DNA from: a candidate division WWE3 bacterium
GTDB lineage: Bacteria > Patescibacteriota > WWE3 > UBA101185 > UBA10185
Direction of reading: 5' to 3'
Length of the DNA stretch: 64,000 bases
Assembly: GCA_012798115.1 (NCBI GenBank)
Contig: JAAZNV010000009.1
Span: forward strand, 10,156 to 74,155
Shown: positions 2,769 through 54,218 of the stretch, one piece after another
How positions within the stretch are numbered: position 1 is the stretch's first letter
Layout: each line of letters begins with the position of its first letter
Translations under genes and position numbers: made by a program
The notes under the pieces: model-generated
What the model was told of the DNA's origin: nothing
Databases searched by the model: none
What the model saw: only the letters and a program-made list of their open reading frames with translations

Positions 2769-5700
2769 ATGGCAAATAACCCTCTTTATCCTGGATATCA
2801 ACCAGGAAAGAAAAACGATGAAAATATTAATCCGTTATATCCTGGCTATTATGCAGGTCAACCTTTGCAAAGGAGACCATCTCCTAAGAATTACTTAAGA
2901 CCAATTGAATATGAAGGGGATAAAATTGCACAAGCACTTGATGAAACAGAGCAAGGGGTTCTAAAAACCATGAATGTACCAAAGTGGATAATAGAAAGAG
3001 TAGCTGATGATTGGAAGAGCAAGTACAAAATATCAATTAAGCCACCGGATATAGAAACTACAGAATTAGATGATTATGCAACCGAAGATTTTCCAGGTGC
3101 TGTTACCACATTAAATGTAGATCCTGGAAGCTGGAAAAAAGATGCAAAGAAAGAAGCTGTAAAGACAATAAAATCATGGGTTAAAGAATCCACTGGATTT
3201 GATACAGATAACCCTCTTAAAACTGATTTTTCTGATATAGAAAACAAGGTGAATCATGAGTTGTGGATTAGAGCATTAGGTTATGGAAAACCAGATACTT
3301 GGCTTGAGGAAAAGACAAGTATGGGAGTAGCAAAAAGGGTAGCTGCCCCATTTCCAAACTTAAGTGAGAATCTACAAAAAGGAGAAAATCCTTTAAACGT
3401 TAGAGACGTGGCTGTATGGTACGTAGATGATAATGGAAACAAAGTAGTAAAAAAAGATATCTATCATAATACAGCAGCTGCTGCTGCAGAGTTTGCAGAG
3501 CAAAGCAGCAATCCTAAAGTTAGAGATAAGCTTCACTCTCAATTTATAGCAAATGCTATAAGCGCTACAAATACAGAAATTCAAGCTAAGTTTAGAAATC
3601 CTGGAATAAAAGATAGATCTTTTTTGGATAAGTATGAAGGAGATGTAAAACTTTTTGACATAAAAACTCAAACTATAGACGACATTCGTAACCTACAAGA
3701 AAAAACCTTAAAAGGAACTACAAAAGAAATAAAGAAATCAATATTAAAAGGGGCTAAAAGAGATTCTTATGCATCAACTTGGGAAGAACTAGAGATTGCA
3801 TTAAATAAAGCAAGCAATAATCAAAAGACTAGAATGAAGAATGCAGAAACTCTTTTATCTCAAGGAAAGATCTCAAAAGAAGCTTTTGATAAGCTACAAA
3901 AGAGTGTAAATGACTATAACAGTTTCTTAGATAATGCGTTAGACAAAGTTACAGGAGCTAAAGATGGAAAACTTTCACCAACTATAGTTTTACACTCGCT
4001 AACTGGGGTTGGAGAAAAAAGTCTTGTAGAAGAAAATCTTTTCACAAAAAGTATAGTAGGAAAACTACAAAAGGATGCTGAGTACAGTATGATAAGTACC
4101 AAACCAGGTGAGATTGGAAGAATGTTACGTGATGATAACTTGAAGGCTCAAGGAATGAGTTTTAGCGCAGAAAAGATAAGTGCTGTTGCATATAGACTAA
4201 GAAGAGAAAAGATAGGACAACAAACCACTGAATTTTTAGAAGCAGTAAACGACCCTAAAAAGGCATTAGAAAGATATGCATGGAACAGGGTAACAAGCAG
4301 AATGTCTCCAAGATTAGCTGCATTTACTACTGGTGAGTACATTGAAAACAGATTAAAAAAGAGAAACTACTTTGGACTAAAAGTTGATGAAAGTGGAATA
4401 CCAAGTACCCTTAGCGGTTCAAAAAGGGCTGTAAGAAAATTTGAAAGATTCGAGAGAAAGTATGGATACAAAGTGGATATTAAGTTAGAGAAGAAATATT
4501 TTGGTGTCGGGAAATTAACCGTTAGAGGAGGGGACCAGTTTAAGATTTTAAACAACAAGCTACTTAAAGGACTTGATTCTGAAATCGATAAAGAATTTTT
4601 ATTGCATACCCTTGGAGATGGGAAAGTTACAGCAGATATGTTATCTAAAAAGTTTTTTGGTAAAACTTTTAAAGATTTAACTGGAGGAGAGAAAAAAGAA
4701 ATAGCTGCATTTGCAAGAGAATCCAGAGCTTATAGAGAATGGGTTAATAGCTTATCAGATAAATTTGGCGATAAAACAAAGCAAGGACTTTTTGGGTATG
4801 AATTATTCAAGAGAGTAAAAGGCAAGAATGATGAACTACCAAATGGGTATAGTCTTACAAGAAAATACGCTGGAAGGTTAGAAAAAGTTCACAAGAAGAT
4901 GTTAGAGGCAAAAGCTAAGTTTGAAAAGAGTGCTATTGGTAAGTTAATAAAAATAGCCAGCAACTGGAGAGAGATGGCAGCAGAGAAGATTGCTGAGTTG
5001 GTCTCTAAGTTAGTAGCTAAGTTAATAGGAGCTGTTGCAGGCTCAACTGGAATATTTGCAGTACTTGGACCAATAATAGAAAAGGCTGTTAATTTTGTGG
5101 TCAAAGAGGTTGTGAAGAGAGTAACAGATTTCTTCAGTGCTGTTGTAAAAGGGGATATAGACAAAGCATTTGAGGTTCTTGAGGAAGCTGCTAAGAAGTT
5201 TGCACTTGGGTGTTCACTAATATTTGCTCCATTTTTTGCTGCCATAATAAGTATTGTATTGCTGTTAGGTTCCATACTAGGTGGATCTGAATCTCCAATT
5301 GATAGAACTGCCGACTCGACATTAATAAAAAGTCAGACAGAGTTTGTCTCAGGAGAAAATGCAGTCGTTAAAATAACAAAGGGTGCAACTGTAAAGGTAC
5401 TAGGAACTGGAGAAACAATTACTAATCCAAACCATTTTGAAAACAGTGTTTTAAGAAGCGGCCTGCAAGTAACATACAAAGTGCATGTAACTCCAAAGAT
5501 TACTTTACCAAACGGATCAGTATTTTTTATAGATGAAGTGTTGGCAAGAAATGAAATGGATTCATGGAGTGTTAAAAACTACGGTACAACAATGGTAAAC
5601 CCGTTTATAGCAGGAAATACAATAACATACGATCTTACGCCACCTATCATTATAAAAGGTGATAAGTTTAAAGATTCTGTAGTAGCCAATACTGCCACAG

Positions 5701-46832: not shown

Positions 46833-46916
46833 GAAGATATTCTAGCATTTATTGGTTTGACTTTATAAATTCTTAATAGTATAACCAAGAAAAATATTAG
46901 AAAGGGAGATGTTGTC

Positions 46917-47570
46917 ATGAGTAAGAAGACGGGTAATGCTGTCCAAGACGACAAGCTAACGAACGAGGAGCTTGGTGCTTTATATCGCAGGGTTTTGGAA
47001 ATTAGTCGCCGCTTGAACGACGGAACTATTAAGTATACTTCTGTGATGGGGGGTCTTCAGGAAATTATTGAGGGTCAAGGGGCAGAGGATCGGTCAGTCT
47101 GGAACTGGAAGACTATTGAGATCGGAACTTACAAGGATATGGAGTCCCTGCGCAAAGCTCTGGAAGAAGCAGGTGCTGCTATTAGGGGTCAGGCAAGTGA
47201 TGTTCTCAACAGGGTATATTTAAGTAAATCCAAACAGTCCTTGGATCTGGTGGTTTTGTCCGTCAAAGAGCTGGGATTTTCTCAAAGAGCCCAACTAGAA
47301 AGCATCCACAAAATCGGTGACGTACAGGGTTTGGGCAAGCCTCCAGCTGAAGCAGCTCCGCAGTACCTATTGGAGCACGGTAATAACCTAAAACCTGGAG
47401 AGGTTCTAATCTTTGCAATGGAACCTATTATAGACTCCTTTTGCGATCTGCGCCTGTTCTTCGTCAAGCGCTTTGGCGATGTTCTTAGTCTCGGCGCGTT
47501 CCGCGTTCGCCCTGATGACTTCTGGGATGTTGACGATCGCTTCGTGTTCGTTCGTGTTCGTTGCAAGTAG
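46917..47570 (+). CDS. Compositionally foreign (GC-rich, ~48% GC) gene of unknown function inserted between gap and pgk on the opposite strand
   Basis: GC content is visibly higher than the flanks (~33%). The 3' end contains a GTTCGT hexamer repeat; no motif recognised. Followed by a hairpin terminator. The 47282..47629 minus-strand ORF is an Arg-rich mirror artefact. Confidence 0.45.
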   Translation: MSKKTGNAVQDDKLTNEELGALYRRVLEISRRLNDGTIKYTSVMGGLQEIIEGQGAEDRSVWNWKTIEIGTYKDMESLRKALEEAGAAIRGQASDVLNRVYLSKSKQSLDLVVLSVKELGFSQRAQLESIHKIGDVQGLGKPPAEAAPQYLLEHGNNLKPGEVLIFAMEPIIDSFCDLRLFFVKRFGDVLSLGAFRVRPDDFWDVDDRFVFVRVRCK

Positions 47571-47578
47571 GTTCTTTG

Positions 47579-47620
47579 AACTCCGTGTTTTTGGATTTTT
47601 CTATACCAAAGCACGGAGTT
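47579..47620 (+). terminator. Hairpin terminator after the GC-rich gene, abutting the gap stop codon
   Basis: AACTCCGTG...CACGGAGTT (9-bp outer stem with an inner TTTGG/CCAAA pairing) followed by TTTTATT. Confidence 0.5.
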
Positions 47621-47621
47621 T

Positions 47622-48698
47622 TTATTCACTCATCATTATTGCCATATCAACAAGTCTATTACTGTATCCCCATTCATTGTCATACCAAGCAAATATCTTA
47701 ACTAAATTCTTATCTATAACCTTAGTCATAGACAAATCTACTACTGCAGAGTAGGGGTTTCCAATAATATCTGAAGATACAATAGGTTCATAAGTAACTT
47801 GGATAACATCCTTGTAAATTGAATTTTTAGAAGCTTCTTCAAATGCTTTATTTACTTCATCTTCAGTAACATTCTTTTCAACCAAAGCTGTAATATCAGA
47901 TAAAGACCCTGTAACAATTGGAACTCTAAGAGATACACCATCAAATTTTCCCTTAAGATTTGGCAATGCTTCTGTTGTTGCGTCTGCAGCACCAGTAGTT
48001 GTAGGTATTATATTGTAACCAGATGACCTAGCCCTTCTTAAATCTACCTTTTCTCCAGATGGTGGAGTATCCACAACACTCTGATTATTTGTTATTGCAT
48101 GAATAGTACTCATTCCAGCTTTAATAATCTTGAAATTCTTGTCAAGAATAGCTAGCACTGGAGAAATACAGTTCGTTGTACAAGAAGCATTTGAGATAGC
48201 ATTTTGACCTAAATACTGTGAATCATTAACCCCTTTCATAAATGTTTGAATAGTTCCACCTTTTGTTGGAGCAGACACTATTACTTTCTTAGCTCCTGCC
48301 TTTATATGTTCCAATGCACTGTCATCTTTAGTAAATCTTCCTGTGCATTCCAAAACAATATCAATATTTAGCTTTTTCCATGGTAATTTGCTTGGTTCTT
48401 TTTCTGAAGTTACTAAAGTTCTTTTTCCGTCTACAATAAGATAATTTTCATTTCCCTTAATATCAAAAAACTCCTTTTCTCCCTTATTGTCTTCCAGTCT
48501 TGTCTTTTTACCATCTTCTTCTATGTATATTTCCTTGTTGTAAACTCCATAAACCGTGTCATATTTTAAAAGGTGAGCTAAGACTCGAGGATTAGTTAAA
48601 TCATTGATAGCAGCAATGCTTAATCCTTTTTCAAGAGCAATCTTGAAAGAAGATCTCCCTATTCTTCCAAATCCATTTATTGCAAGCTGGGCAGTCAT
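47622..48698 (-). CDS. gap: Glyceraldehyde-3-phosphate dehydrogenase (type I)
   Basis: INGFGRIGR N-terminus and the active-site context ASCTTNC. Confidence 0.9.
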   Translation of the reverse strand: MTAQLAINGFGRIGRSSFKIALEKGLSIAAINDLTNPRVLAHLLKYDTVYGVYNKEIYIEEDGKKTRLEDNKGEKEFFDIKGNENYLIVDGKRTLVTSEKEPSKLPWKKLNIDIVLECTGRFTKDDSALEHIKAGAKKVIVSAPTKGGTIQTFMKGVNDSQYLGQNAISNASCTTNCISPVLAILDKNFKIIKAGMSTIHAITNNQSVVDTPPSGEKVDLRRARSSGYNIIPTTTGAADATTEALPNLKGKFDGVSLRVPIVTGSLSDITALVEKNVTEDEVNKAFEEASKNSIYKDVIQVTYEPIVSSDIIGNPYSAVVDLSMTKVIDKNLVKIFAWYDNEWGYSNRLVDMAIMMSE

Positions 48699-48719: not shown

Positions 48720-48986
48720 CTAATTTAAAAGTGAATTCAACCAAGTTTTTAACATCTCTTTAGGCATTGCACCTGTTCTTCTATCTATTTCTTTATCATC
48801 TTTCAAGGCTACAAATGTTGGAATGCTCATAATATTAAACTTTGATGCTAGATCTGATTCTGCTTCTACATCAGATTTCTGGAATTGTATCTTTCCTTGG
48901 TAATCACCTTCAATTTCTTCAAATATTGGGGCCATTATCTTGCACGGTCCACACCAATCTGCATAAAAATCTATTAATTTAATCAT
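48720..48986 (-). CDS. trxA: Thioredoxin (minimal, 88 aa)
   Basis: WCGPC active site. Confidence 0.85.
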   Translation of the reverse strand: MIKLIDFYADWCGPCKIMAPIFEEIEGDYQGKIQFQKSDVEAESDLASKFNIMSIPTFVALKDDKEIDRRTGAMPKEMLKTWLNSLLN

Positions 48987-49066
48987 TTCAAATCTCCTAA
49001 GATGAAAATATATTTACTAAATAAAACTGCTGGGATCTATGATAACATAATCTTTGTTTACTCACT

Positions 49067-50080
49067 ATGAAAAATATTTCAAGAAGAAAATATACTCTTT
49101 TTCTATTGATTTTAATGCTTCTTATAACCGTCTTTATTTTTGGGGAAGGACTTTTTAAGAAAGTATTTAAAGATGAGTTTCTTGTTAAAGAAGATTTAAC
49201 AGAAAAAAATTATTATTCTACGCTTTTAATCAACACATTAAGTGATTCCGGAAGCTCACCTGATTTTAGTATCCTCCAGTCTAATTGGAATCCTGGAGAA
49301 GAGTATGGTACGTCCAATCAGCCTGAGATATCAGGAGAAAGTGGCATAGTTGTAGACATAAATTCTGGGAGGATTCTTTATGAGAAAAATTCTACACAAA
49401 GGTTAAAAATTGCAAGTTTAACTAAAATTATGACTGCTGTAGTTGCTTTAGAACATAAGAATATTAATGATGAGATTGTTGTTTCCTTAAAAGCTTCATC
49501 TATTGGAGAAAATGTTATGGGTATATCAGAAAGTGAAGTATACACACTAGAAGAACTTCTTTATGGGCTGATTTTAAATTCTGGAAATGATGCTGCATAT
49601 GCAATTGCAGAAGGAGTTGCTGGGAACTCCGACACATTTGTTAAGTGGATGAATATGAAAGCAAAGGAATTGAATTTAAATGATACGTATTTTACTGACC
49701 CTTGTGGTTTAAACGATGAAACTTATTCCACTTCAGTAGATTTAGTTAAGTTATCTAGGTATGCAATGCAAAAAGAAGAGTTTAGGAAGATAGTAAGTAC
49801 GGTTAGTATGGAGCTTCCTTATTCTGAAAAACATAAATATATTTATTTGGAAAACCAAACTAATCTTTTAACTACATATCCTGGAGTTGCAGGAATAAAA
49901 ACAGGGTATACAGAAGAAGCAGGGTATTGTTTAGTTTCTTATACAAAGAATAATAACATTGAGCTAATTGGAGCAGTCTTAAATAGTGAAAATAGGAAGT
50001 TTGATATGATTTTTATGCTCGATCACAGTTATTCCACATTGGGAGTTGTAATCGAGCATCCTTTACTTCAATTTTATTAA
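49067..50080 (+). CDS. D-alanyl-D-alanine carboxypeptidase (serine-type, PBP5/6-like)
   Basis: N-terminal TM, SxxK motif (ASLTK), SGN motif (LNSGND) and a KTG motif (IKTGYT). Confidence 0.8.
   Translation: MKNISRRKYTLFLLILMLLITVFIFGEGLFKKVFKDEFLVKEDLTEKNYYSTLLINTLSDSGSSPDFSILQSNWNPGEEYGTSNQPEISGESGIVVDINSGRILYEKNSTQRLKIASLTKIMTAVVALEHKNINDEIVVSLKASSIGENVMGISESEVYTLEELLYGLILNSGNDAAYAIAEGVAGNSDTFVKWMNMKAKELNLNDTYFTDPCGLNDETYSTSVDLVKLSRYAMQKEEFRKIVSTVSMELPYSEKHKYIYLENQTNLLTTYPGVAGIKTGYTEEAGYCLVSYTKNNNIELIGAVLNSENRKFDMIFMLDHSYSTLGVVIEHPLLQFY
49995..50079 (+). repeat. 85-bp perfect direct repeat, copy 1 (3' end of the carboxypeptidase gene)
   Basis: GGAAGTTTGATATGATTTTTATGCTCGATCACAGTTATTCCACATTGGGAGTTGTAATCGAGCATCCTTTACTTCAATTTTATTA, identical to 50615-50699. 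Confidence 0.85.
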
Positions 50081-50081
50081 T

Positions 50082-50588
50082 TCAATCGGTGGCTTTAACA
50101 ATAACAATTCCTTTGGCCTCACCTACTTGCGTATAAAGACCTGAGGACAGCTTTTCTCCAGTCGGTATTGTTATTGGGCCCATTCTAAAACTATCGCGTT
50201 GAGGAAAATAAATCTTTTGTATTCTTGGTTCGTACCCCTTAAGTTTATACAGAATGTATCCCATAAGTGTGTTTTTTACGTAGTTTATGAAATGTTTGTT
50301 TTCACGTAGAACGCAAGCTGATGCCAACTCGTCATCGGTTCTTGTTCCTTTTTTTGGTTTCACATATAAAACAAAACTTACACTAGCAAACCATTCCAGG
50401 GCAGAACTAGGATGCTTCTCTTTCCAAATTGCCATACGACTAAGATCTGTGTCAAGAGAATAAATTACCCATTCTATACCGCTGCTTGGTGCCTTAAAGC
50501 ACTTGTCGTAATAATCCATTTGTCGCTCCTTTTCTAGTCTTTTCCTTTTGATTTTCTGGATTGTAGCAGTAAAGAGTTTTGTATTCAA
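50082..50588 (-). CDS. Hypothetical protein encoded between the two direct-repeat copies (cargo of a small insertion)
   Basis: 168-aa ORF in a slightly more GC-rich 535-bp segment bounded by the 85-bp repeats. No motif recognised. Confidence 0.4.
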   Translation of the reverse strand: MNTKLFTATIQKIKRKRLEKERQMDYYDKCFKAPSSGIEWVIYSLDTDLSRMAIWKEKHPSSALEWFASVSFVLYVKPKKGTRTDDELASACVLRENKHFINYVKNTLMGYILYKLKGYEPRIQKIYFPQRDSFRMGPITIPTGEKLSSGLYTQVGEAKGIVIVKATD

Positions 50589-50614
50589 CTCTGCAAGTCT
50601 TGGTTATTTAAGTG

Positions 50615-50699
50615 GGAAGTTTGATATGATTTTTATGCTCGATCACAGTTATTCCACATTGGGAGTTGTAATCGAGCATCCTTTACTTCAATTTTATTA
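50615..50699 (+). repeat. 85-bp perfect direct repeat, copy 2 (non-coding duplicate of the carboxypeptidase 3' end)
   Basis: Identical to 49995-50079. The next base differs (G vs A), turning the TAA stop context into TAG. Confidence 0.85.
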
Positions 50700-51131
50700 G
50701 TTGTTTACCTGTGTTGGTATTGATCGCATTACAGAAGCTACACCTCTTAACACATAACATTCTGAGTTAGACATGTAAGTGTCTCTTCTGGTTTTTGCAA
50801 GTACCCTGTCATAAACTCTTATTTCAACCCCTTCTTTTTTAAGCAATACTCTAGCTCTTGGAGCAACTTTCCTTGATACTGTAGATAACAGGTTGTTGGT
50901 GTATTTCCTGGATTCATAGTCTACCCCATTTAATATCTCTTGAAGATCAAGTTTCTTGTCTTTTGGCTTCGACCTTAAAATTGCTTGGAATGATACCTGT
51001 GCTATCTTGACGTGCCCATCTAATTTCTTTGCATAGGGATACTTGTATACTACTTTTGGAAACCATACTAAAAAGACCGTTACTGATTTTTGGTGTATAA
51101 ATACCGTAAATTCTGTGCCTTCTCCTCCCAT
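50697..51131 (-). CDS. Hypothetical basic protein abutting repeat copy 2
   Basis: 144 aa, K/R-rich, no motif recognised. Its 3' end overlaps the end of repeat copy 2. Confidence 0.35.
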   Translation of the reverse strand: MGGEGTEFTVFIHQKSVTVFLVWFPKVVYKYPYAKKLDGHVKIAQVSFQAILRSKPKDKKLDLQEILNGVDYESRKYTNNLLSTVSRKVAPRARVLLKKEGVEIRVYDRVLAKTRRDTYMSNSECYVLRGVASVMRSIPTQVNN

Positions 51132-51235
51132 CGTCTTTCCTTTCTTTATTTATCGCTTGGATTCTACCAATAAACATCTTGTATTTCAATTCTATAAGCT
51201 TTGATTATAAATTGCATATTTGTAATAATAAAGAC

Positions 51236-51766
51236 ATGGAAAACAATAAACGTAAGAGTATATTCCCTTTAGTTGTAATATTTCTATTCATTGGAATTCT
51301 AGTATTTGGAGCTTATTGGTATGGTAAACAATCTTCCTTAGAAAACACAAAGAATGAAATAGAAGAGTCAAAAGAATCTACTTCTTCAAAAGACGAGGAG
51401 AAAAAAGATGAAGGAGAAAATGGCAAAGAAGATGAATCTGAAAAGATGAAAGAAGAAGATACAGAAGAAGAAATAAAAACAGAGCTAAAGAAGCTATTTG
51501 CAGTTAAATATAATAAAGAAATTGAAGATGTAAGTATAACAATAAGTCAAAGAAAAGGAGACTACATTGTAGGTGGCGTTAAATTTACTGGAGAAATGGC
51601 TGGTGGGTATTTGTTAGGTGCTAAGGTCAATGGGGAGTGGAAGATAATATTTGATGGTAATGGGACTATTCCATGTAGTTCAGTAGATAAAGTAGATTTT
51701 CCGTCTGATTTAGTTACAGAATGCTGGGATACAGTAAACATGGAATCTGTTGATAGAACAAAGTAA
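51236..51766 (+). CDS. N-terminally anchored protein with acidic linker and small C-terminal domain; start refined to second ATG
   Basis: MENNKRKSIFPLVVIFLFIGILVFGAYWYG is the TM; the E/K-rich linker encodes ~100 aa. The upstream ATG at 51179 adds a non-hydrophobic leader. Confidence 0.4.
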   Translation: MENNKRKSIFPLVVIFLFIGILVFGAYWYGKQSSLENTKNEIEESKESTSSKDEEKKDEGENGKEDESEKMKEEDTEEEIKTELKKLFAVKYNKEIEDVSITISQRKGDYIVGGVKFTGEMAGGYLLGAKVNGEWKIIFDGNGTIPCSSVDKVDFPSDLVTECWDTVNMESVDRTK

Positions 51767-51835
51767 CAAACAATAAACAAAACCATCAATTGATTTTCTT
51801 AAGGTTACTAAGTTAATAGGTGATATTATATTTTC

Positions 51836-53815
51836 GTGTCTAAAAATAATTCCCAAGATAAATCTGAACTACTTAAGAAGTTAAACCTCCAGCAGATAGA
51901 AGCTGTGAAGCACTTAAATGGTCCTGCACTTGTTGTAGCAGGTCCTGGAAGTGGTAAAACAAGAGTATTGACCCACAGAGTTGCTTATTTAATAAAAGAA
52001 AAGAAAATCCCGGAGGCTAATATCTTATGTGTGACTTTTACAAATAAAGCAGCTGATGAAATAAAGTCTAGAGTTAGTGTTTTACTTTCTAATAATCAAG
52101 AATCTTCAAAACTTCCTTGGAGTGGAACATTTCACTCAATATGTTCAAAAATCCTTAGAAAGGATGGAATAAACATTGAAATACCCCCATCTTATGTGAT
52201 TTATGATACGGATGATTCGTCAGATGTAATAAAAGGAATACTTAAGGATTTTGGAATTGATTCTAAGAGATTTCATCCCAAGGCTGTATGGGAAACAATA
52301 TCTAGTGCCAAGTCAGAGCTTGTTCCACCGCTTGATTATGAAGGCTATGCTCAAGGTTATTACCAAAGGACAGTTGCTAAAGTTTATCCTGAGTATCAAA
52401 AGAGATTAAAAGATAACAACGCCTTGGACTTTGATGATCTTCTTTTTGAAACAGTAAGATTATTTGACGAGATTCCTCACATTTTGGAGAAATATCAAAA
52501 CTTATTTAAGTACATTCTTGTGGATGAATATCAAGATACAAATAAAGCACAATATATTTTGACTAAACAATTATCTAATTCCCACAAGAATATATTTGTG
52601 GTTGGAGATATGTCGCAAGCTATTTACTCTTTTAGAGGAGCTGATTTTAGAAATATACTTAACTTTCAAAAAGATTACCCTGAAGCCAAAATATACAACT
52701 TAGAACAAAATTATAGATCAACCCAAAACATCTTAGATGCTGCTAAGAACGTGATAAAGAATAATTCCACTCATATCCCTCTTGATTTATGGACTGAAAA
52801 TGAAGGTGGGGAGAAAGTAGTGGTTTTTTCTGGAGGTACAGACAAAGAAGAAATATCTTTTGTCATAAATGAAATAACTAATCAAATATCTTTAGGTAAG
52901 TCATTTGGTGATGTTGCTGTCTTGTATAGAACTAATGCTCAGTCTAGAGCAATGGAAGAGGCTTTAATTAAAAATAATATCCCATATAGAATATTTGGAG
53001 GTGTAAGGTTTTACTCTAGGAAGGAAATAAAAGATATTGTTGCTTACCTTCGTGTTATTCATAACCCTAAGGACTCTGTTTCATGGAAAAGAATAATAAA
53101 TATACCTCCAAGAGGAATAGGACAAAAAACTATGGAAAAGCTAAAAGAAGGAAAATGGGACATTGAAGAAGTGGAGAAGGTGTCTAAACTCCCACTTTCT
53201 AAATGGATAAAAAGCAAAGAAGCTTTATCCACCAATGAGCTAATGGATATAGTCTTAAATGACACAGGGTATATTAAGTGGCTTGATGATGGCGCAGAAG
53301 AAGCTTTGTCTAGAGTGGAAAACGTCAAAGAACTAAGATCTGTTGCTTCTCTTTTTGTAAATCTTGAAGATTTTCTTGAGAATATTTCTTTAATAGAAAA
53401 TACAGAAAAGCCTAGTGATGTAAAAAATACAAACTCTGTAACTTTGCTTACCGTTCATTCTGCAAAAGGACTAGAGTTTGGTGTTGTCTTTATCATTGGA
53501 ATGGAGGAAGGGTTGTTTCCTCATGCTCAGTCTATTGGGGAAGCACAAGATTTGGAAGAAGAAAGGAGGCTTTGTTATGTCGCAATTACGAGAGCAAAAG
53601 AAAAAGTTTATTTAACTAATGCTAAGTCAAGACTTTACTTTGGAAATATTCAAGCAAATCTTCCAAGTAGATTTTTGTTGGAGATTCCAAGTAAGTTGAT
53701 TGATTTTAAGGGAATTAATTTTACTAACTACTTTGGCAATCATTTTAAGAGTACATCCGACAATGATTTTTTAGATGACTTAGATTTAAATAGAAACTTT
53801 TTTAAGTGGGAATAG
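51836..53815 (+). CDS. UvrD/PcrA-family SF1 DNA helicase (compact, 659 aa)
   Basis: QQIEAVKH..GPALVVAGPGSGKTRVLTHRVAYLI, DEYQDTN and the other UvrD motifs. Confidence 0.85.
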   Translation: MSKNNSQDKSELLKKLNLQQIEAVKHLNGPALVVAGPGSGKTRVLTHRVAYLIKEKKIPEANILCVTFTNKAADEIKSRVSVLLSNNQESSKLPWSGTFHSICSKILRKDGINIEIPPSYVIYDTDDSSDVIKGILKDFGIDSKRFHPKAVWETISSAKSELVPPLDYEGYAQGYYQRTVAKVYPEYQKRLKDNNALDFDDLLFETVRLFDEIPHILEKYQNLFKYILVDEYQDTNKAQYILTKQLSNSHKNIFVVGDMSQAIYSFRGADFRNILNFQKDYPEAKIYNLEQNYRSTQNILDAAKNVIKNNSTHIPLDLWTENEGGEKVVVFSGGTDKEEISFVINEITNQISLGKSFGDVAVLYRTNAQSRAMEEALIKNNIPYRIFGGVRFYSRKEIKDIVAYLRVIHNPKDSVSWKRIINIPPRGIGQKTMEKLKEGKWDIEEVEKVSKLPLSKWIKSKEALSTNELMDIVLNDTGYIKWLDDGAEEALSRVENVKELRSVASLFVNLEDFLENISLIENTEKPSDVKNTNSVTLLTVHSAKGLEFGVVFIIGMEEGLFPHAQSIGEAQDLEEERRLCYVAITRAKEKVYLTNAKSRLYFGNIQANLPSRFLLEIPSKLIDFKGINFTNYFGNHFKSTSDNDFLDDLDLNRNFFKWE

Positions 53816-53897: not shown

Positions 53898-54218
53898 ATG
53901 AGCAGGATGATCCCATGTGTAGTTAAGCTCACTGGTGACCCTAGGTTTTATGTAGTTGGATCAAGCAATGGTAAGGTGATTTCAATCCTTATTTCTTGTG
54001 AAGGTAAGCAAATTTTTGAGCCCTTATCAAATAAGGAAATTCGTTTAAAACCTGCTGACAGTGCTAGCTTCCTTAATTGTATAAAGGACTTAAGAAACAA
54101 ACCTTCTATCTTGGTCTGTGAGTTTAAAACTTATGAAGAAGCTGAATTTGCAGCTGCTAAAGCATATGGAGTTGATTATGACTTAGTCGATTTTATATGC
54201 TTGTATACCCCCGTATGA
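53898..54218 (+). CDS. Small hypothetical protein with strong SD
   Basis: AAGGAGG 5 nt upstream of the ATG; 106 aa, no motif. Confidence 0.4.
   Translation: MSRMIPCVVKLTGDPRFYVVGSSNGKVISILISCEGKQIFEPLSNKEIRLKPADSASFLNCIKDLRNKPSILVCEFKTYEEAEFAAAKAYGVDYDLVDFICLYTPV

Follow-up and report, generated by a model that had tools for sequence, protein, structure and literature searches.

The window, a 64-kb stretch of DNA from an uncultured WWE3 bacterium, encodes a D-alanyl-D-alanine carboxypeptidase, DacA, on its plus strand (positions 49067 to 50080). The gene is intact, and its product of 337 amino acids matches Pfam PF00768 over residues 83 to 308 (E = 8e-60). Two small minus-strand genes lie downstream, one for a 145-amino-acid orphan protein (50082 to 50519; NCBI tag GYA37_02870) and one for a basic orphan protein of 144 amino acids (50697 to 51131; GYA37_02875). 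They are followed on the plus strand by the gene for a conserved 176-amino-acid membrane-anchored protein (51236 to 51766), which has homologues in L001, L012, L013, and L016 (L numbers denote loci compared with the window). The order of the core genes is conserved: TIM, PGK, GAPDH, thioredoxin, and dacA, then the 176-amino-acid protein gene, UvrD, and RsmA. In the sister-strain locus L005, precomputed Pfam calls across about 6 kb on each side comprise FemAB, glycosyltransferase, RsmA, UvrD, thioredoxin, GAPDH, PGK, AFOR_N, and TIM and include no recombinase.

The 3' end of dacA is present twice. As an earlier note on this DNA had claimed, the repeat is perfect over 85 bp: positions 49995 to 50079 (R1) and 50615 to 50699 (R2) are identical at 85/85 positions and run into different stop codons, TAA at 50078 to 50080 and TAG at 50698 to 50700. 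Similarity extends somewhat further, with 90/93 matches between 49990 to 50082 and 50610 to 50702. This pair is the only direct repeat of at least 30 nt and the only exact repeat of at least 20 nt in the 64-kb window, in which there are exactly two occurrences of a 45-nt repeat core (0 expected from shuffled sequences). R1 codes for the last 28 codons of dacA. The Peptidase_S11 domain stops at residue 308 and the repeat starts at about residue 310; the C-terminal motif MLDH..LGV.IEHPLL encoded there is common to DacA and its full-length homologues in relatives. R1 is the working 3' end of dacA, which is intact through it, in keeping with the earlier proposal that the proximal copy is a replacement 3' end. 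R2 is a noncoding relic of the dacA tail and forms the 3' flank of the 144-amino-acid protein gene. That gene had been described as starting at the distal repeat; it does adjoin the repeat, but it ends there, its stop codon overlapping the last 3 nt.

Four sister-strain loci from independent metagenome assemblies (L005, L006, L007, and L009), 99.1 to 99.4% identical to the window, are colinear with it, in some cases across the whole insertion and in others as far as the repeat, where the contig stops. L006 and L007 are the contigs that break off precisely there, as might be expected if a repeat had been collapsed or joined chimerically in assembly. However, both copies are spanned colinearly in the window, L005, and L009. 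In L005 and L009, moreover, the copies differ at two positions, copy 1 carrying ACA>ACG and copy 2 carrying ACTTCAA>ACTCCAA, which makes the two copies distinguishable. The sister assemblies and these copy-specific polymorphisms leave the assembly artefact that the earlier note had allowed for with practically no probability: it is excluded, and the 620-bp insertion is real. The empty site that the note had predicted for a single-gene insertion is present in the closest relatives, L001 to L004, where dacA converges directly on a gene of the 144-amino-acid family with a 4-nt overlap. We also considered a polymorphism-free stretch among the sister strains (50039 to 50687) as a sign of recent arrival and set it aside; other stretches of the 11 kb compared go just as long without a polymorphism.

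The 535 bp between the repeat copies have a GC content of 37.8%, compared with 33.8% for the window, which bears out the slight elevation noted earlier; it is not striking, as 7.5% of 535-bp windows are at least as GC rich. The protein encoded there had been read as 168 amino acids long. The TTG start of that 168-codon open reading frame (ORF) is in fact the beginning of the -35 hexamer TTGAAT (50588 to 50583) of the gene's own promoter-like site, whereas an AAGGAG lies 6 nt upstream of an ATG at 50519, the alignment with the sole homologue of the protein starts at this methionine, and the NCBI call is likewise 145 amino acids. The promoter-like site, P_B (50560 to 50588, minus strand), consists of TTGAAT, a 17-nt spacer, and TG-TACAAT and is followed by the leader CCAGAAAATC and the AAGGAG ribosome-binding site (50520 to 50559). 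From the -35 hexamer to CCAGAAAATC, P_B is identical at 37/39 positions to the native promoter at the same place in L012; the leader GCTACAATCCAGAAAATC also occurs in L010 and L013, and GCTATAATCCAGAAAATC occurs in L001. P_B is only about 65 to 72% identical to P_A, the neighboring promoter-like site of the 144-amino-acid protein gene (51161 to 51189, minus strand; TTGAAA, 17 nt, TG-TAGAAT; 10/12 matches), which is shared with L004. Upstream of P_B, the distal end of the inserted unit (50589 to 50614, minus strand) is, by leader alignment, homologous to the stretch between promoter and 176-amino-acid protein gene elsewhere (the ATCAAGGCTTATAGG region), and it meets R2 in a novel joint between 50614 and 50615. 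The 620-bp unit is a complete transcription unit, comprising a sigma-70-like promoter, the 145-amino-acid ORF, and a dacA tail, and is a copy of what normally occupies the same locus in other WWE3 lineages. In L010, a member of the 145-amino-acid family is the sole gene at this position, overlapping dacA by 4 nt and preceded by the same leader, GCTACAATCCAGAAAATC. The family was found in only two lineages and nowhere outside this position, and it is thus not the conserved housekeeping gene that the earlier note had named as the finding that would speak against an insertion.

The 144-amino-acid protein gene appears to be the older resident. Its homologues P0003 and P0004 (70 to 73% identity) lie at the same position in L001 to L004, and its synonymous divergence (dS, 0.45 to 0.60; dN/dS, 0.18 to 0.29) resembles that of dacA (dS, 0.58 to 0.66), which fits vertical descent. 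The ORFs for the 145- and 144-amino-acid proteins are both under purifying selection. We searched for signatures in these two proteins and in the proteins of 179, 188, 183, and 217 amino acids, and nothing scored above threshold in Pfam, PHROGs, PADLOC, or NCBIfam. The 145-amino-acid protein has no recombinase or nuclease signature in these four collections, including LAGLIDADG, GIY-YIG, HNH, PD-(D/E)xK, or similar nuclease domains, and family scans detected no toxin or immunity signature at the locus. A sequence search of solved structures gave only chance-level matches, and fold searches returned no recombinase, nuclease, or other informative match. The AlphaFold model of the 144-amino-acid protein (pLDDT of 37) is unusable. 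A match to P0006, a 507-amino-acid tandem-repeat protein, consisted of six weak stretches (E = 9e-5) and was judged likely spurious.

Comparison of genomes whose DacA proteins are 67 to 85% identical shows that in this WWE3 clade a hypervariable single-gene slot lies between dacA and the 176-amino-acid protein gene. It is bordered by a fixed sigma-70-like promoter at one end and by a hairpin in the last dacA codons at the other. The slot is empty in L015 and encodes proteins of 141 amino acids in L004, 179 plus 139 amino acids in L001, 188 amino acids in L012, 183 amino acids in L013, and 51 amino acids in L018, in addition to the 145-amino-acid family member in L010. Besides the one empty state, there are at least five mutually unrelated orphan occupants, all convergent on dacA. 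Conserved flanking core genes thus enclose a site where close relatives differ in their gene content, as in a horizontal-transfer hotspot. In L001 the insertion is at the promoter end, and the dacA-tail hairpin is not one of its boundaries.

The hairpin in R1 (50015 to 50059) has the arms ATGCTCGATCACA and TGTAATCGAGCAT, which form a 13-bp stem around a 19-nt loop and encode M-L-D and I-E-H of DacA; its counterpart in R2 spans 50635 to 50679. The repeat block is approximately centered on it (20 nt, 45 nt, and 20 nt). The single C.A mismatch in the stem becomes G.U on minus-strand RNA, and predicted fold energies are about -19 to -22 kcal/mol (z = -2.5 to -3.7). Only one codon combination yields the 9-bp perfect arms (P = 0.0005 from codon usage), and the pairing needs the rare codons CTC (4% of Leu), ATC (10% of Ile), and GAG (23% of Glu). 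The hairpin is under nucleotide-level selection beyond the amino acid constraint; its core stem is invariant, and so no compensatory changes are available. A strong hairpin is present in 7/7 lineages with a convergent gene and in 1/5 without one, the exception being L019 (Mann-Whitney P = 0.003 for the minus strand and 0.009 for the plus strand; the 12 lineages are not phylogenetically independent). In L016 and L020, which have no convergent gene, MLD and IEH are kept but are written in noncomplementary codons. The hairpin is not followed by a U-tract on either strand (the sequence beyond it is AAAAATCATATC on the minus strand and CCTTTACTTC on the plus strand), indicating that it is not a classical intrinsic terminator, and a terminator consensus scan of 48900 to 51900 found 0 terminator-like sites. 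Because it occurs mainly where a convergent gene exists, the hairpin is probably the 3'-end signal of the slot gene, and it would act on minus-strand slot-gene transcripts as a 3'-end, stabilizing, or read-through-limiting signal.

The repeat sequence appears to be confined to this locus. In the genome and metagenome contigs searched, the only matches to a 29-mer from the repeat core, or to a degenerate coding form of it, were at dacA; neither the 29-mer nor the 85-bp core matched a viral contig collection, and an E-value scan of 49500 to 51400 against Rfam gave only chance matches. The block is near identical among the window, L001, L004, and L013, although the remainder of dacA differs by 15 to 20%, and this shared block and the duplication have their inner edge at the same point (49995). 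It is puzzling that one repeat type should be common to lineages whose dacA genes are so different. We rejected the idea that the repeat is universally ultraconserved, since it is the dacA block that has diverged most from L010 and is unremarkable in comparisons with L012 and L015.

These observations are best accounted for, at a probability that we put at about 60%, by general recombination that stacked two alternative occupants of the dacA slot. The resident 144-amino-acid protein gene would have been inherited vertically, being common to the closest relatives. The newcomer, a 620-bp unit of P_B, the 145-amino-acid ORF, and a dacA tail, would have been copied from the same slot in another lineage or strain. 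The cell's general recombination could have built the stack through one homologous join, in or beside the dacA tail, and one illegitimate join that fused sequence just past P_B to a point 85 bp inside dacA. With the illegitimate joint placed 85 bp ahead of the dacA stop codon, the dacA tail would come to be present twice. R1 would preserve dacA, and the relic R2 would provide the 144-amino-acid protein gene with its earlier 3' flank and hairpin. The junction at 50614/50615 is novel, and the other side is homologous. From these comparisons we infer how the units recombined, which way the DNA moved, and what the hairpin does. Two routes are conceivable, namely, homology-facilitated illegitimate recombination following DNA uptake and unequal crossover between a pair of chromosomes that differ in their slot allele. 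The former is an established route for insertions with one-sided homology (PMC3240628), and natural competence has been shown in Saccharibacteria, another group of Patescibacteria (PMC10633639). Because R1 and R2 are identical, the donor must have had the same repeat type, as a conspecific strain would, unless conversion followed; from a source as distant as L010 or L012, a divergent repeat would have come in. That the edge of the duplication falls on the edge of the shared block is not predicted by a random illegitimate joint and hints at a preferred crossover point.

Stacking could also have arisen in place, if unequal sister-chromosome exchange had duplicated the promoter, the 144-amino-acid protein gene, and the repeat in tandem and one copy had later been replaced by a 145-amino-acid allele through homologous recombination or had diverged past recognition. 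The two units are indeed alike in size (about 600 to 620 bp, with ORFs of 144 and 145 codons) and carry identical repeats, both promoter-like sites have a 17-nt spacing and a TG, and the predicted order of secondary-structure elements in the two proteins is loosely similar. However, the proteins share no sequence or profile similarity (BLASTP E = 2; hhalign probability of 0.2%), the coding DNA is unalike, with resemblance restricted to promoter and repeat, and P_B is far closer to the promoters of other lineages (37/39) than to P_A. Divergence in place is excluded by the finding that the 145-amino-acid family stands alone in L010, and replacement would need donor DNA already flanked by the repeat on both sides; we therefore consider a tandem origin unlikely. 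We regard as similarly improbable a recombinase-driven exchange in which the 85- to 93-bp hairpin block serves as an attC- or att-like site for a recombinase encoded elsewhere in the genome and single-gene cassettes, each with its own promoter, are inserted, excised, and swapped in an integron-like manner without an adjacent integrase. The fixed promoter, the precisely replaced ORFs, the hairpin at the 3' end of each gene, the centering of the repeat on that hairpin, the nucleotide-level selection on it, and the coincidence of the duplication's inner edge with that of a repeat type shared among diverged lineages would all suit such a system. Against it, neither strand of either repeat copy, with 15 nt on each side, contains GTTRRRY or RYYYAAC cores, and there is no integrase within about 6 kb. 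The second unit carries the slot promoter and the region beyond it, making it a whole-slot copy rather than a promoterless cassette; the insertion in L001 lies at the promoter end without this hairpin as a boundary; and the 145-amino-acid family and the repeat core were found only in this slot. It is accordingly doubtful that the hairpin block is the recombination site of an undescribed, integrase-distant cassette system of Patescibacteria. We have equally little confidence that such a system takes up, stacks, and releases single orphan genes between the fixed promoter and the dacA-end hairpin, and it seems no more probable that cycles of insertion and pop-out have spread one repeat type across lineages whose genomes differ by 15 to 20%. 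Under that reading, a second slot, between PGK and GAPDH, suggests that such exchange could extend across the genome.

A lone foreign gene between direct repeats, with its target gene left intact, recalls an integrative element, and the earlier note had accordingly suggested a decayed att-type element or a homing-type selfish gene at the dacA 3' end. A weak LAGLIDADG_3 match in the neighboring 144-amino-acid protein (E = 0.13) might seem to favor this option, but at 13 bits it falls below the 22.5-bit cutoff and lies in the resident gene rather than in the insert. The insert itself lacks matches in Pfam, PHROGs, PADLOC, and NCBIfam, so that no nuclease signature backs the homing proposal, and fold searches were uninformative. 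Nor does an att-type origin find a recombinase, in the insert or within about 6 kb in L005, or a repeat core in viral contigs. At 535 bp, the insert is too small to have held a lost recombinase and contains no remnant ORF, and the ends of the unit are slot sequences, not element ends. An element or homing gene whose integrase or nuclease was later lost is thus very improbable, close to refuted. Transposition receives no support either: the insert encodes no transposase, its best terminal inverted match is 10/20 (shuffle mean, 10.2), and the duplication is 85 bp long, in contrast to the short target-site duplication expected. For the scar, general recombination between alternative slot occupants is a better explanation than att-type integration.

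Several known systems share features with the locus. Horizontal-transfer hotspots, or flexible genomic islets, are variable sites between conserved core genes, and the dacA slot resembles them in its conserved core order and in having unrelated orphan genes, or nothing, at a fixed point in close relatives. It differs in its single-gene scale, in the common orientation and single conserved promoter of its occupants, and in that these abut or overlap the dacA stop codon, with a selected hairpin inside dacA as the far border. CDI and Rhs toxin loci contain displaced "orphan" 3' modules, in which an incoming module copies the conserved end of the resident gene; there, too, the old gene end is pushed downstream, leaving a short direct repeat behind. 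In the present case, however, dacA, whose end is duplicated, is not the variable gene, and no toxin or immunity signature was found. Integrative elements with att sites in tRNA or protein genes likewise leave flanking direct repeats, the proximal of which restores the target 3' end, whereas the 535-bp dacA insert has a single orphan ORF, lacks a recombinase, and belongs to a unit whose ends have their homologues in the chromosomal slot of relatives, not in a phage or plasmid. Integrons and attC arrays share an end promoter followed by unrelated, stackable single-ORF units, each with a hairpin-forming end; the dacA slot differs in lacking a nearby integrase and attC cores, in placing the site in the coding end of an essential-type gene, and in that the stacked unit brings its own promoter copy.

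Homology-facilitated illegitimate recombination (PMC3240628) has homology at one end, an illegitimate joint at the other, and no element-encoded enzyme, and here the dacA tail would supply the clean homologous side and 50614/50615 the novel joint. The difference is that the joint lies inside the homologous gene and so produces the 85-bp duplication; the event is one that we infer. As for the hairpin, REP hairpins in 3' untranslated regions of E. coli are reported to limit read-through and stabilize the upstream mRNA and also to occur between convergent genes (bioRxiv 10.64898/2026.03.23.713779). This is the role that we propose for the dacA hairpin, which differs from REPs in being a single-locus feature written in rare codons within coding sequence, whereas REPs are dispersed extragenic repeats.

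The repeat marks a genuine, fixed gene gain in an uncultured WWE3 genome, neither an assembly error nor a mobile element. It represents an ordinary kind of genome variation seen at a very fine scale, with the turnover of orphan genes in a streamlined Patescibacteria genome visible at single-gene resolution. An otherwise rigid housekeeping backbone contains fixed slots, with a reusable promoter at one end and a rare-codon hairpin in a neighboring gene at the other, and purifying selection on the orphan proteins makes them candidates for lineage-specific functions. If the hairpin is a 3'-end signal, a regulatory element of one gene is hidden in the coding sequence of the opposite gene, which bears on the annotation of gene ends in compact genomes; if it is instead a recombination site, the locus would be a new cassette system.

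The 3' end of dacA in this candidate division WWE3 (Patescibacteria) genome is present twice. Positions 49995-50079 (copy 1) and 50615-50699 (copy 2) are identical over the full 85 nt, as the earlier note had claimed, and the change of stop codon from TAA in copy 1 to TAG in copy 2 is likewise real; similarity continues beyond the 85 nt (49990-50082 versus 50610-50702, 90/93). Within the 64 kb this is the sole direct repeat of at least 30 nt and the sole exact repeat of at least 20 nt, and its 45-nt core has two exact occurrences in the window against 0 expected. The intervening 535 bp show the slightly raised GC content described before (37.8% versus 33.8% for the window); 7.5% of equal-size windows reach this mild excess. 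Two minus-strand genes lie here: an inserted gene of 145 aa (50082-50519; GYA37_02870 at NCBI) and a resident gene of 144 aa (50697-51131; GYA37_02875). The inserted gene had been read as 168 aa; that longer ORF starts at the TTG of the gene's own -35 hexamer. AAGGAG lies upstream of the ATG at 50519, and the alignment of the protein's sole homologue begins at the methionine of this codon. The 144-aa gene, said to start at the distal copy, ends there instead. On the plus strand, the relic dacA tail of copy 2 gives rise to a 50-codon pseudo-ORF (50548-50700) with a TTG start, which overlaps the 145-aa gene's promoter in antisense; its expression is unlikely, but gene callers could be misled by it.

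An assembly artefact, which the earlier note had kept as an option, is excluded by independent colinear assemblies and copy-specific substitutions. The identical 145-aa protein is encoded on contigs of several independent assemblies, and the sister-strain loci L005, L006, L007 and L009 are colinear with the window at 99.1-99.4% identity. L005 and L009 show one private substitution per repeat copy (ACA>ACG in copy 1, ACTTCAA>ACTCCAA in copy 2), so the two copies are separate, independently evolving sequences. The insertion is older than the ~0.7% divergence among the window and its sister strains, whose mismatches number 7 in 435 nt of the 144-aa gene versus 0 in 438 nt of the 145-aa gene. In L007, the 144-aa gene (1204-1641, corresponding to window 50697-51131) has a mosaic patch at residues 26-35, with one extra codon, that resembles the allele of the relatives' loci L001 and L004. 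The L006 and L007 contigs stop exactly at the repeat; L011, a contig of 623 bp and the only other one to carry a homologue of the 145-aa family, reaches 14 nt past the gene's stop codon and ends just before a hairpin in the dacA tail. Short-read assemblers often break at repeats, and these contig ends could be repeat-induced breaks or could reflect mixed populations with differing slot states.

The slot, the space between dacA and the gene of the 176-aa family (a conserved membrane-anchored protein), was compared among relatives. The 144-aa protein has two homologues (70-73% identity) in L001-L004, where dacA and the convergent 144-aa-family gene are direct neighbours, overlapping by 4 nt, and the 145-aa gene is absent; this empty site bears out the single-gene insertion first proposed. 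The 145-aa protein had no relative by word-indexed search, and an exhaustive HMMER search recovered one homologue, P0005 (49% identity, E = 6e-28), which in L010 occupies the slot alone and overlaps the dacA stop by 4 nt. Looking up dacA relatives gave additional slot states: unrelated ORFs of 188 aa in L012 and 183 aa in L013 and L014, a 51-aa ORF in L018, an empty slot with a 56-nt spacer in L015, no convergent gene in L016, L017, L019 and L020, and an extra 179-aa ORF ahead of a 139-aa gene in L001 and L002. Pairwise BLASTP found no mutual relationship among the occupants, the 144-aa and 145-aa families are unrelated also in profile comparison, and no occupant matched a family in Pfam, PHROGs, PADLOC or NCBIfam. 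The housekeeping order around the slot (TIM, PGK, GAPDH, thioredoxin, dacA, UvrD, RsmA) is kept throughout. After UvrD, a 106-aa plus-strand ORF (53898-54218), called as a gene in L005 and L006 too, had zero family matches in every library searched.

Low dN/dS in both families (0.18-0.29 for the 144-aa family, 0.28 for the 145-aa family) shows that the two ORFs are real, constrained genes. In the 144-aa family dS (0.45-0.60) is comparable to that of dacA (0.58-0.66), and vertical descent of this gene within the window/L001/L004 clade would fit. For the 145-aa family, the AlphaFold model (pLDDT 62, medium-low confidence) matches generic alpha/beta folds only; that for the 144-aa family is unusable. 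The idea of a homing-type gene is not supported, the only relevant match being a weak, sub-threshold one in Pfam (LAGLIDADG_3, E = 0.13), to the resident protein rather than the insert.

Each gene is preceded by a sigma-70-like site on the minus strand, with 17-nt spacing and an extended -10: P_B for the 145-aa gene (50588-50560, TTGAAT / TG-TACAAT) and P_A for the 144-aa gene (51189-51161, TTGAAA / TG-TAGAAT). Alignment of the regions upstream of all slot genes yielded a conserved slot promoter (ATCAAGGCTTATAGG, TTGAA, a spacer and TGCTACAATCCAGAAAATC) that precedes unrelated ORFs in L010, L012 and L013, the window's 145-aa gene and, with GCTATAAT, the 179-aa gene of L001. From the -35 hexamer to CCAGAAAATC, P_B shares 37/39 positions with the L012 slot promoter; it is only ~65-72% alike to the adjacent P_A, whose variant GGTAGAATCCAAGCGATAAA is common to the window and L004. 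Positions 50589-50614, also part of the inserted unit, are a diverged copy of sequence from the side of the promoter that faces the 176-aa gene. The 620-bp unit therefore comprises, in order, a stub of beyond-promoter sequence, promoter, leader, ORF and dacA tail, and by this anatomy it is a copy of almost an entire slot of some other lineage or strain, with no element ends of its own.

We consider the feature to be, with a probability of about 0.6, a recombination scar in which two alternative orphan genes are stacked in a hypervariable single-gene slot. Up to 50614 the window is colinear with a chromosome carrying the 145-aa occupant (dacA, repeat, 145-aa gene, P_B), and from 50615 on with one carrying the 144-aa occupant (repeat, 144-aa gene, P_A, 176-aa gene), so that one non-homologous joint and one homologous exchange suffice. 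The exchange would lie within the dacA tail or to its left, and the joint would link the DNA immediately past P_B to a position 85 bp inside dacA. One possible route is homology-facilitated illegitimate recombination, which yields insertions of such a kind (PMC3240628); unequal crossover between chromosomes that differ in slot allele would lead to the same product. Saccharibacteria have been shown to be naturally competent (PMC10633639), although WWE3 have not. In a sister lineage, the 179-aa orphan gene at the promoter end of the same slot (L001 810-1349, L002 1660-2199) is an independent stacking event. It has the canonical leader GCTATAATCCAGAAAATC and, in L001, its own hairpin and T-run (~1361-1400); L001 and L004 are identical through the promoter spacer; beyond it L001 has the canonical -10 and leader instead, and the insertion ends in a new joint past the cassette's own hairpin and T-run. 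It looks like a mirror image of the window's stack.

The hairpin of the dacA tail is present in each repeat copy (ATGCTCGATCACA, 19 nt, TGTAATCGAGCAT), its arms encoding the conserved M-L-D and I-E-H. Given these residues, a single codon combination allows the perfect 9-bp core, with a joint probability of 0.0005 from window usage (CTC, 4% of Leu; ATC, 10% of Ile; GAG, 23% of Glu). Among 12 lineages, which are phylogenetically non-independent, a strong hairpin (-17 to -27 kcal/mol) is found in 7/7 with a gene converging on dacA, and 1/5 without such a gene has a strong one (Mann-Whitney P = 0.003 on the minus strand, 0.009 on the plus strand; Fisher's exact test by hand, 7/0 versus 1/4, ~0.01). 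L016 and L020 keep MLD/IEH, but in non-complementary codons. Two stem substitutions among the window, L001 and L004 still pair as G.U on minus-strand RNA; L010 has the opposite polarity. A U-tract after the hairpin is absent on both strands, and a consensus scan found no classical terminator. The last codons of dacA hide a selected hairpin, a noteworthy side-feature of the scar. It probably serves as a 3'-end, stabilising or read-through-limiting signal of the slot gene, placed inside the dacA coding end, a role comparable to that reported for E. coli REP hairpins (bioRxiv 10.64898/2026.03.23.713779). If so, the duplicated tail leaves each stacked gene with both promoter and hairpin. The exceptional lineage, L019, has a strong hairpin (3407-3481, -22.7 kcal/mol) with no convergent gene after it, and may have lost its slot gene recently.

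Two explanations that invoke mobile-element machinery were weighed against the scar. A decayed integrative element, which the earlier note had listed as an option, finds no support: terminal inverted repeats and attC core motifs were not found in the inserted unit or repeat, no recombinase gene lies within ~6 kb of the slot, and the unit's ends are slot sequence. A recombinase-driven cassette model for the slot is improbable but still live, and it draws on the distribution of the repeat. In comparisons of the window with L001 or L004, 15.5% of dacA positions differ, versus a single position in the 85-bp block (binomial P ~1e-5; 2e-4 to 5e-4 at synonymous sites alone). L013 has the same repeat type (5-7 differences versus 15-17 expected); versus L012, L015 and L010, the divergence of the block is unremarkable or even the highest within dacA. 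Because L012 and L010 also have the hairpin, its selection is not the whole reason for the shared type. The inner edge of the shared block (~49990) coincides with that of the duplication (49995). On one reading, cycles of stacking and subsequent pop-out between the two copies could carry a single repeat type from lineage to lineage, leaving no cassette. On the other, the coincidence hints at a preferred crossover point ~20 nt from the hairpin, which would point towards site-directed recombination. The identity of the two copies implies either later conversion of the copies or a donor that shared the repeat type and was therefore probably a conspecific strain. This identity and the coincidence of edges keep the recombinase-driven model as a minority view. 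As a recombination scar, the feature is a new example of already known genome plasticity.

The PGK-GAPDH interval is a second variable slot in the window. It holds a plus-strand orphan ORF of 217 aa (46917-47570; flanks 46850-46934 and 47579-47870) with 48% GC versus 34% for the genome, and dN/dS against its 215-aa L001 homologue is 0.60. L012, L016 and L018 have nothing in this slot, and unrelated ORFs occupy it in L017 (118 aa), L019 (167 aa) and L020 (158 and 71 aa); its ORFs are always convergent on GAPDH. Compared with L001, the ORF is 60-70% identical, while its flanks, the 3' end of GAPDH among them, stand out as conserved islands (81-82/85), and an inverted repeat with 18-nt arms (47579-47620) lies between the 217-aa ORF and GAPDH.
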